From IMG/VR virus record IMGVR_UViG_2695420613_000016: DNA of 4,170 bases. One strand, given 5' to 3'. This stretch comes from a virus (Duplodnaviria > Heunggongvirae > Uroviricota > Caudoviricetes). The position numbers and the translations under genes are program-made. Under the pieces are notes generated by a model. The model searched no databases. It had not been told where the DNA came from and saw only the letters and a program-made list of their open reading frames with translations. Every line of letters begins with the position of its first letter. Positions within the stretch are counted from its first letter, which is position 1. Below are positions 3,771-4,170 of the stretch, piece after piece.

Positions 3771-4083
3771 ACACATCCGCATGGCGATGAATGCCTGGGC
3801 GCATCCGGACGGCGAAAAAGTACCGGCTGCGAAAATTACCAAAGCGTATTTCGAGCTGGGAATGACGTTCCCGGAACTGTATGACGACAGCCATCCGGAA
3901 GCCATGGCTCGCAATACTCAGAAAATTTTCCGCTGGGTGGAGAAAGACACTCCTGATGCGGTTAAAAAAATTCAGGCGTTGTTACCAGCGATCGAAAAAG
4001 CGATGCCGCCTCCGCTGGTGGCCCGAATGCGCAGCCACAGTTCTGAACCGCCCCGGGTTTCCTGGAGAGTGTTTTATCTGTGA
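3754..4083 (+). CDS. ydaT: YdaT-like (CII-analogue) protein, 109 aa, apparently C-terminally truncated or replaced
   Basis: ORF track. GGAG 7 nt before ATG; overlaps the ydaS-like 3' end by 17 nt. N-terminus MKIKHEHI... and the KIQALLPAIEKAMP region fit recalled YdaT. The last ~17 residues (SHSSEPPRVSWRVFYL) look like read-through into unrelated DNA. Confidence 0.65.
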   Translation: MKIKHEHIRMAMNAWAHPDGEKVPAAKITKAYFELGMTFPELYDDSHPEAMARNTQKIFRWVEKDTPDAVKKIQALLPAIEKAMPPPLVARMRSHSSEPPRVSWRVFYL

Positions 4084-4085
4084 AC

Positions 4086-4170
4086 TCAGGCTGCCAGATC
4101 ATCGTTTCCGATGGAAGCATAATAAGCTTTTTCTGCTTCTGCCGGAGGAGTATGGCCCAGCCTTCCCAGC
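4086..4170 (-). CDS. C-terminal fragment of an unidentified convergent gene (ends ...LGRLGHTPPAEAEKAYYASIGNDDLAA); continues beyond window end
   Basis: Hand translation of minus strand: open frame from the window edge to TGA at 4088..4086, 2 nt from the ydaT-like stop. Too short to assign. Confidence 0.3.
   Translation of the reverse strand, partial: LGRLGHTPPAEAEKAYYASIGNDDLAA

Follow-up and report, generated by a model that had tools for sequence, protein, structure and literature searches.

The ydaT-like gene in a 4,170-nucleotide stretch of prophage DNA (hereafter the window, meaning the whole stretch that was analysed) is interrupted within codon 97, and the DNA that follows the break, positions 4044..4170, is in our reading the right end of an IS3-family element, IS629 in its IS1203 isoform, which transposed into the gene. 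We put the probability of this reading at about 0.96. The window carries just the terminal 127 bp of the element (IRR side, minus strand; assigned from the inverted repeat and the PGAP label), and the remainder of the arrangement is visible in the closed genome of Escherichia coli O157:H7 strain OK1. In kind, the finding is already known: this is an ordinary IS629/IS1203 insertion pseudogene, and it is so annotated by PGAP in a public genome. For annotators, ydaT should accordingly be recorded here as a pseudogene split by IS629/IS1203, and neither as a short variant nor as a phage mosaic junction.

Gene content of the window

The window covers the early/immunity region of a lambdoid E. coli O157:H7 prophage. 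Its left part carries, on the minus strand, dicB (384..572) and the gene for the full-length antisense sRNA DicF (758..809; Rfam RF00039, 76.9 bits, E 2e-16), with DicF upstream of dicB, a layout as in the Qin/Kim-type dicBF operon. DicF, which lies far upstream of the ydaT junction, was the sole match in an Rfam scan of the window, and no RNA family was found at the junction itself. Farther to the right, a gene for a cI-like helix-turn-helix (HTH) repressor (2988..3389, minus strand) is followed directly downstream by the co-oriented genes of a RelE/ParE–RelB toxin–antitoxin pair (2482..2960), namely those for a RelB-family antitoxin (2769..2960) and a RelE/ParE-family toxin (2482..2769). This trio (2482..3389, minus strand) corresponds to the paaR-paaA-parE-type arrangement within a lambdoid immunity region, as in CP-933P.

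Opposite the repressor gene, on the plus strand, lies a ydaS-like gene (3498..3770; Pfam YdaS_toxin, 38.8 bits; "transcriptional regulator" in PGAP), YdaS having the role of a Cro analogue (PMC8630535). It overlaps the ydaT-like open reading frame (ORF) downstream of it (3754..4083, plus strand, 109 aa), which scores 37.9 bits against the Pfam family YdaT_toxin (PF06254), for which the cut-off is 21.

A precise break in codon 97 of ydaT

Compared base by base with the intact ydaT of PV15-279 (locus L002), the window is identical over 290/290 nt from the ATG and diverges fully from position 4044 onward; the same 290 nt of intact ydaT were found in many further genomes. When positions 3700..4170 were used as a megablast query against 5,426 complete E. 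coli genomes, hundreds of genomes matched at 100% identity with matches stopping at 4043, and homology to phage records likewise stopped there. A match that spanned the junction and covered the entire query was returned by a single genome, that of OK1 (1/5426). The break thus lies at 4043/4044, within codon 97 (TC|T), which still encodes Ser, and the authentic 5' part of the gene, delimited by identity to intact ydaT, comprises codons 1–96 plus 2 nt of codon 97 (3754..4043, plus strand). Its last 4 nt, GTTC (4040..4043), are the left copy of a 4-bp target-site duplication (TSD), the right copy of which lies past the window, directly after the element.

To the right of the break, translation carries the ydaT frame through the inverted repeat of the element for 12 codons and a TGA (4044..4083, plus strand), so that the foreign tail of the product consists of 12 residues encoded by the element, EPPRVSWRVFYL. 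The TGA occupies 4081..4083 and is followed by AC (4084..4085) and by a minus-strand stop, TCA (= TGA), at 4086..4088. The frame that ends at this second stop enters from past the window end and translates to LGRLGHTPPAEAEKAYYASIGNDDLAA before the stop. The missing 44-aa C-terminus of YdaT was found in none of the six frames of the window, in which it gave one chance 4-mer match only. The first residue of the fusion that is encoded by the element, E98, coincides with E98 of CP-933P YdaT, because the native CP-933P-type allele reads GTTC|TGAA at this place, with the same 4 nt after the break as the element has at its start.

These results confirm the observations of an earlier note made from the sequence of the window, bear out part of its interpretation, and sharpen it in several places. 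Its proposal that ydaT is truncated at a DNA junction with foreign DNA adjoining agrees with the 100% identity that holds to 4043 and is absent from 4044. Its statements that the missing C-terminal part appears in no other frame and that a minus-strand frame from past the window stops 2 nt after the ydaT stop are correct. The breakpoint that it looked for near 4030..4090 was located at 4043/4044, and the short direct repeat that it expected near the break exists as GTTC. The end of the ORF does lose homology as it had described, but the authentic part of YdaT extends to and includes residue 97, beyond the estimate of about residue 90; likewise, the low-quality tail is truly foreign but is 12 aa long, not 16, SHSS being genuine YdaT. 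The gene beyond the junction, which it had called unknown, is indeed foreign and convergent, yet it can be named: it is orfB, a transposase gene of the insertion sequence (IS).

The adjoining DNA is the end of an IS629/IS1203 element

The element starts at 4044 with TGAACCGCCCCGGGTTTCCTGGAGA. In OK1, where it occupies 5345..6654 of the locus (L001), it is exactly 1310 bp long, and both of its ends begin with TGAACCGCCCCGG, the 13 terminal bases being identical and 22/25 of the first 25 matching, with TG...CA termini. Length and termini are those of the IS3 family (about 1.2–1.55 kb, imperfect inverted repeats, 5'-TG...CA-3'). The element encodes a 108-aa OrfA with an HTH_Tnp_1 domain and a 296-aa OrfB with rve (9e-28), HTH_21, and rve_3 domains, and the two genes overlap at an A6 run at IS position 373. 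This is the two-ORF organization of the IS3 family, with an HTH protein encoded by orfA and a DDE protein encoded by orfB in the −1 frame, the frameshift itself being predicted from the sequence and from PGAP, which labels the product in OK1 [quoted passage not shown] (WP_171877072.1). The minus-strand peptide of the window is the C-terminus of this 296-aa OrfB, so that positions 4086..4170 (minus strand) represent the last 27 codons of orfB and its stop, as established by identity to orfB of the OK1 locus. The gene lies on the strand opposite to ydaT and its stop is 42 bp inside the IS end; the two stops are 2 nt apart because the ydaT frame meets its TGA in the inverted repeat, close to that of orfB.

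Many O157 genomes contain copies that match the element at 1310/1310 positions, and 4253/5426 E. coli genomes have IS629-like sequence. The name IS629/IS1203 was assigned from the PGAP labels and the literature, according to which IS1203 is an isoform of IS629, and no other IS is as prevalent in O157:H7 as IS629 (PMC3271280). O157 genomes contain about 20 or more copies (PMC3271280 and the present megablast search); about 62% of IS629 copies lie within prophages, they are flanked by target duplications of 3–4 bp, and the element is described as lacking sequence-specific targets (PMC3271280). Size, inverted repeats, orfA and orfB, the 3–4 bp duplication, and the preference for prophages are all as in known IS629/IS1203 of EHEC and Shigella. 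The element itself shows no difference from these, and only its insertion site is strain-specific (1/5426 complete E. coli genomes).

Simple transposition and the competing explanations

OK1 is identical to the window at 4169/4170 bases. The sole difference is at position 1964, where the window has A, as do PV15-279 and other O157 genomes, and OK1 has C, a base that results in a Ser-to-Arg change in a ydfB-like ORF. The window is therefore from a very close relative of OK1 that shares the insertion, and is distinct from the OK1 record. In OK1, GTTC flanks the element on both sides (L001 5341-5344 and 6655-6658), a duplication of the 3–4 bp size that IS3-family elements produce. In silico removal of the element together with one GTTC restores the empty site at 490/490 positions and gives the intact 141-aa gene exactly, whereas removal with 3 or 5 bp does not. 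The duplication and the exact excision are together the signature of simple transposition. Beyond the element, the OK1 sequence continues with the 136 nt that complete ydaT and then with ECs1072-family, O-like, DnaC-like, DUF1627, and DUF977 genes, and PGAP accordingly lists, in this order, a "toxin YdaT family protein, missing C-terminus," an IS transposase, and a "toxin YdaT family protein, missing N-terminus." All that lies past the first 127 bp of the element, including the far IS junction, the second GTTC, and the 3' part of ydaT, is seen in OK1 and not in the window.

IS3-family elements transpose by a copy-out-paste-in route via a circular intermediate, and the staggered cut of the target yields a duplication of 3–4 bp. 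In the course of events that we propose, an IS629/IS1203 copy would have transposed into codon 97 with its orfB antisense to ydaT, the GTTC at the target would have been duplicated, and the 3' part of ydaT would have been left beyond the element. The ydaT frame would from then on read 12 codons into the inverted repeat and meet the TGA there, giving a product predicted to retain the POU-like domain (residues 1-97) and to lack the tetramer helix α6, and such a product would have lost the ability to activate the PRE-like promoter at the operator (3747..3764).

Among the competing explanations, the one that retains most weight, although it is improbable, accepts the element and concerns what lies beyond it: recombination between two IS629 copies, causing an inversion or a deletion, could later have joined the element to an unrelated right flank in the genome from which the window derives. 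The window ends within the element and leaves the right flank outside, the 20 or so or more IS629 copies of O157 genomes (PMC3271280) would offer partners for such an exchange, and a related locus, L003 (described below), has an IS629 without a TSD and with an adjacent deletion. Against this stands OK1, the only complete genome with the junction and 1 nt different over 4,170, in which the TSD is intact and the right flank undisturbed. Far less room is left for an exchange of modules, in which homologous or illegitimate recombination between lambdoid phages would have substituted a different module with a convergent gene for all sequence beyond about 4040 and deleted the 3' end of ydaT. Lambdoid prophages are mosaic, and a real boundary between ydaT alleles does exist some 30 nt before the insertion point, as seen in strain OkiPb01713 (below). 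However, the sequence from 4044 is a precise IS terminus with its inverted repeat, and for OK1 the explanation is refuted by the 4-bp direct duplication and by the retained ydaT 3' end and ECs1072-family, O-like, and DnaC-like genes, the ydaT sequence resuming after the element, from the right GTTC copy onward, as GTTCCGCTTATTTTCGGG. The main reading of the earlier note, a recombination junction at which the right-hand module was replaced, fails, 136 nt of ydaT and the usual genes having been kept in OK1; insertion, which it had offered as an alternative, stands.

Two other explanations have next to no probability. That the 109-aa ORF might be a natural, functional short isoform of YdaT is suggested by its being open with a proper stop, and by the coincidence of its E98 with that of CP-933P YdaT; yet its final 12 codons are inverted-repeat DNA of the element, which refutes the idea at the sequence level, the gene is covered over at least 80% of its length in 3007/3016 ydaT-bearing genomes whereas the junction occurs in 1/5426, and the comparable fragment YdaT(1-96) is monomeric and without DNA binding (PMC9986795). 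Full-length homologues ending naturally at this position, which would have spoken against truncation, did not appear: the 141-aa form is the usual one, and no ydaT ends here except by the insertion. An assembly artefact, that is, a contig misjoined or ended at a repeat so that the junction would not be real in the organism, is just as remote. The window does end within a multicopy repeat, as is typical of the ends of draft contigs, but the junction, both IS ends, and the TSD are present in the independent closed genome of OK1, and a chimeric join would not yield a precise IS terminus beside a duplicated GTTC.

Predicted consequences for the YdaT regulator

The intact allele of the gene encodes a 141-aa protein that aligns end to end with the solved structures 8BT1 (CP-933P YdaT) and 3C4R (E. 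coli O6 YdaT), which have the same length, at about 85–89% identity (E about 1e-83). The Pfam score of the window ORF and the identity to solved structures place the gene in the YdaT family, and so does its context, which is shared with CP-933P: ydaT follows ydaS, lies opposite a divergent cI-like repressor gene with a RelB/ParE pair, and has an operator at the ydaS/ydaT junction. CP-933P YdaT is a CII analogue rather than a toxin, and the PRE-like promoter that it activates lies between ydaS and ydaT (PMC8630535). Its POU-like HTH domain is rigid over residues 3-90 and is followed by a hinge (Ser94/96-Tyr99), after which helix α6 builds the tetramer that is needed for DNA binding; the operator consensus, TTGATTN6AATCAA, is located at the end of ydaS (PMC9986795). 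In the window, this consensus has a single exact match, TTGATTCATGAAAATCAA at 3747..3764 (plus strand), against 0.04 expected by chance. We predict this to be the YdaT operator; it lies at the end of ydaS and spans the ydaT start codon.

The IS junction falls in the hinge, past the POU-like DNA-binding domain and ahead of the tetramerisation helix. In the window copy, unlike in the CP-933P and O6 proteins, authentic sequence breaks off in hinge codon 97, and α6 (about residues 100-124) is missing along with the C-terminal tail, so that the helix that forms the four-helix-bundle tetramer is present in the intact allele and absent from the window ORF. The window copy of ydaT is a disrupted member of its family, a pseudogene. 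A close counterpart has been engineered by Prolic-Kalinsek et al. (2023): YdaT(1-96) of CP-933P, in which Ser97 was replaced by a stop, folds into a POU domain that is monomeric and gave no detectable binding to the operator (PMC9986795, section 3.6). The end points of the two are nearly the same, at an IS junction in codon 97 and at a stop in place of Ser97, respectively, although the window product differs from YdaT(1-96) in having 13 additional residues (S97 followed by the 12 residues encoded by the element) and comes from a paralogous allele that is about 85% identical. As the homologue is monomeric and does not bind, we infer that the window allele would be unable to tetramerise or to bind the operator. 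By this analogy, one O157:H7 sublineage almost certainly carries a null allele of the cII-like gene here. By chance, then, a natural allele mirrors YdaT(1-96), and it might serve as a natural test of what loss of the CII analogue does to prophage behaviour.

In phage lambda, CII-type functions serve to set up lysogeny and are not required for its maintenance. The insertion would for that reason be expected to have little effect on the resident prophage. A whole-gene search found the ydaT family in five places of the OK1 genome, one of them full-length at 87.8% identity, and the other prophages of OK1 keep full-length ydaT paralogues of their own. The predicted operator of the disrupted regulator is itself intact, and ydaT paralogues of the same genome might act on it. 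A polar effect of the element on the downstream replication genes is possible; a promoter and terminator consensus scan around the 3' region of intact ydaT gave nothing above the shuffled expectation. An EHEC IS-excision enhancer can aid excision of IS629 (PMC9943667), and the disruption of ydaT may consequently be reversible in principle.

Distribution of the insertion

Uninterrupted sites predominate in E. coli, with 721/723 of the genomes that have the stretch carrying an empty site. In a search with the whole gene, 3007/3016 E. coli genomes with a match covered at least 80% of the 141-aa ydaT, a count in which each record is ranked by its best place, most genomes holding several paralogues. 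The junction shared by OK1 and the window was found in none of the GTDB species representatives, in none of the JGI metagenome contigs, and in no phage record. Strain-specific IS629 sites serve as epidemiological markers for O157:H7, and the present one marks an OK1-like lineage (1/5426).

A second insertion at the same nucleotide

An unrelated bovine E. coli isolate from Okinawa, OkiPb01713 (NZ_AP042682), carries a 1310-bp IS629-type element (locus L005, 2693..4002) at the position that corresponds to window 4043/4044. The nucleotide and the GTTC duplication are the same as in OK1 and the orientation is opposite, and the element differs from the OK1 copy at 37/1310 positions (2.8%). The 5' part of the OkiPb01713 ydaT is 84% identical to that of OK1 (16% different over the first 290 nt), and its ydaS and upstream immunity genes are unrelated. 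Given the differences in element, orientation, ydaT allele, and immunity region, the OkiPb01713 insertion is independent of that in OK1.

Two hits on one phosphodiester among the 723 site-bearing genomes suggest a local hot spot, and the site after ...CACAGTTC (hinge codon 96/97) might thus be a genuine hot spot for IS629-type insertion, although we consider this rather doubtful. The two ydaT alleles meet at a natural mosaic boundary that lies roughly 30 nt 5' of the insertion point (alignment columns about 248-300; window about 4001..4043): up to about column 260, OkiPb01713 shows 84% identity to OK1, and from there on the identity is 100%, with the 30 nt immediately ahead of the insertion point conserved in the two strains. 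Were the hot spot real, it could reflect a cryptic target preference of IS629 that resides in the local sequence or structure of these conserved 30 nt; alternatively, it could reflect recurrent selection for a knockout of the CII analogue that leaves a stable POU domain. Likeness of the target to the IS ends was also considered as a reason and set aside as unconvincing, with 8–9/16 matches. The hit on the same nucleotide in opposite orientation offers a small lead on how IS629 chooses its targets.

Two further megablast matches that at first sight resembled additional copies of the junction proved to be IS629 in a neighbouring gene, the O-like replication gene of a CP-933P-type prophage, in O111:H8 strain 9662 (L003, 3436..4745) and O157:H7 strain Z866 (L004, 3540..4849). 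In both, the element is 1 nt different from that of the window and has the same orientation, and it sits at two different positions just downstream of a CP-933P-type ydaT. The TSD of this pair is 3 bp (TTG) in one locus and absent from the other, L003, where a deletion adjoins the element. The same type of IS interrupts the cro-cII-O-P-like operon in these two loci, in OkiPb01713, and in the window; the insertion is at the identical nucleotide and GTTC in OkiPb01713 and the window, and in the O-like gene instead in L003 and L004. IS629 repeatedly strikes the early-right operon of these lambdoid prophages.
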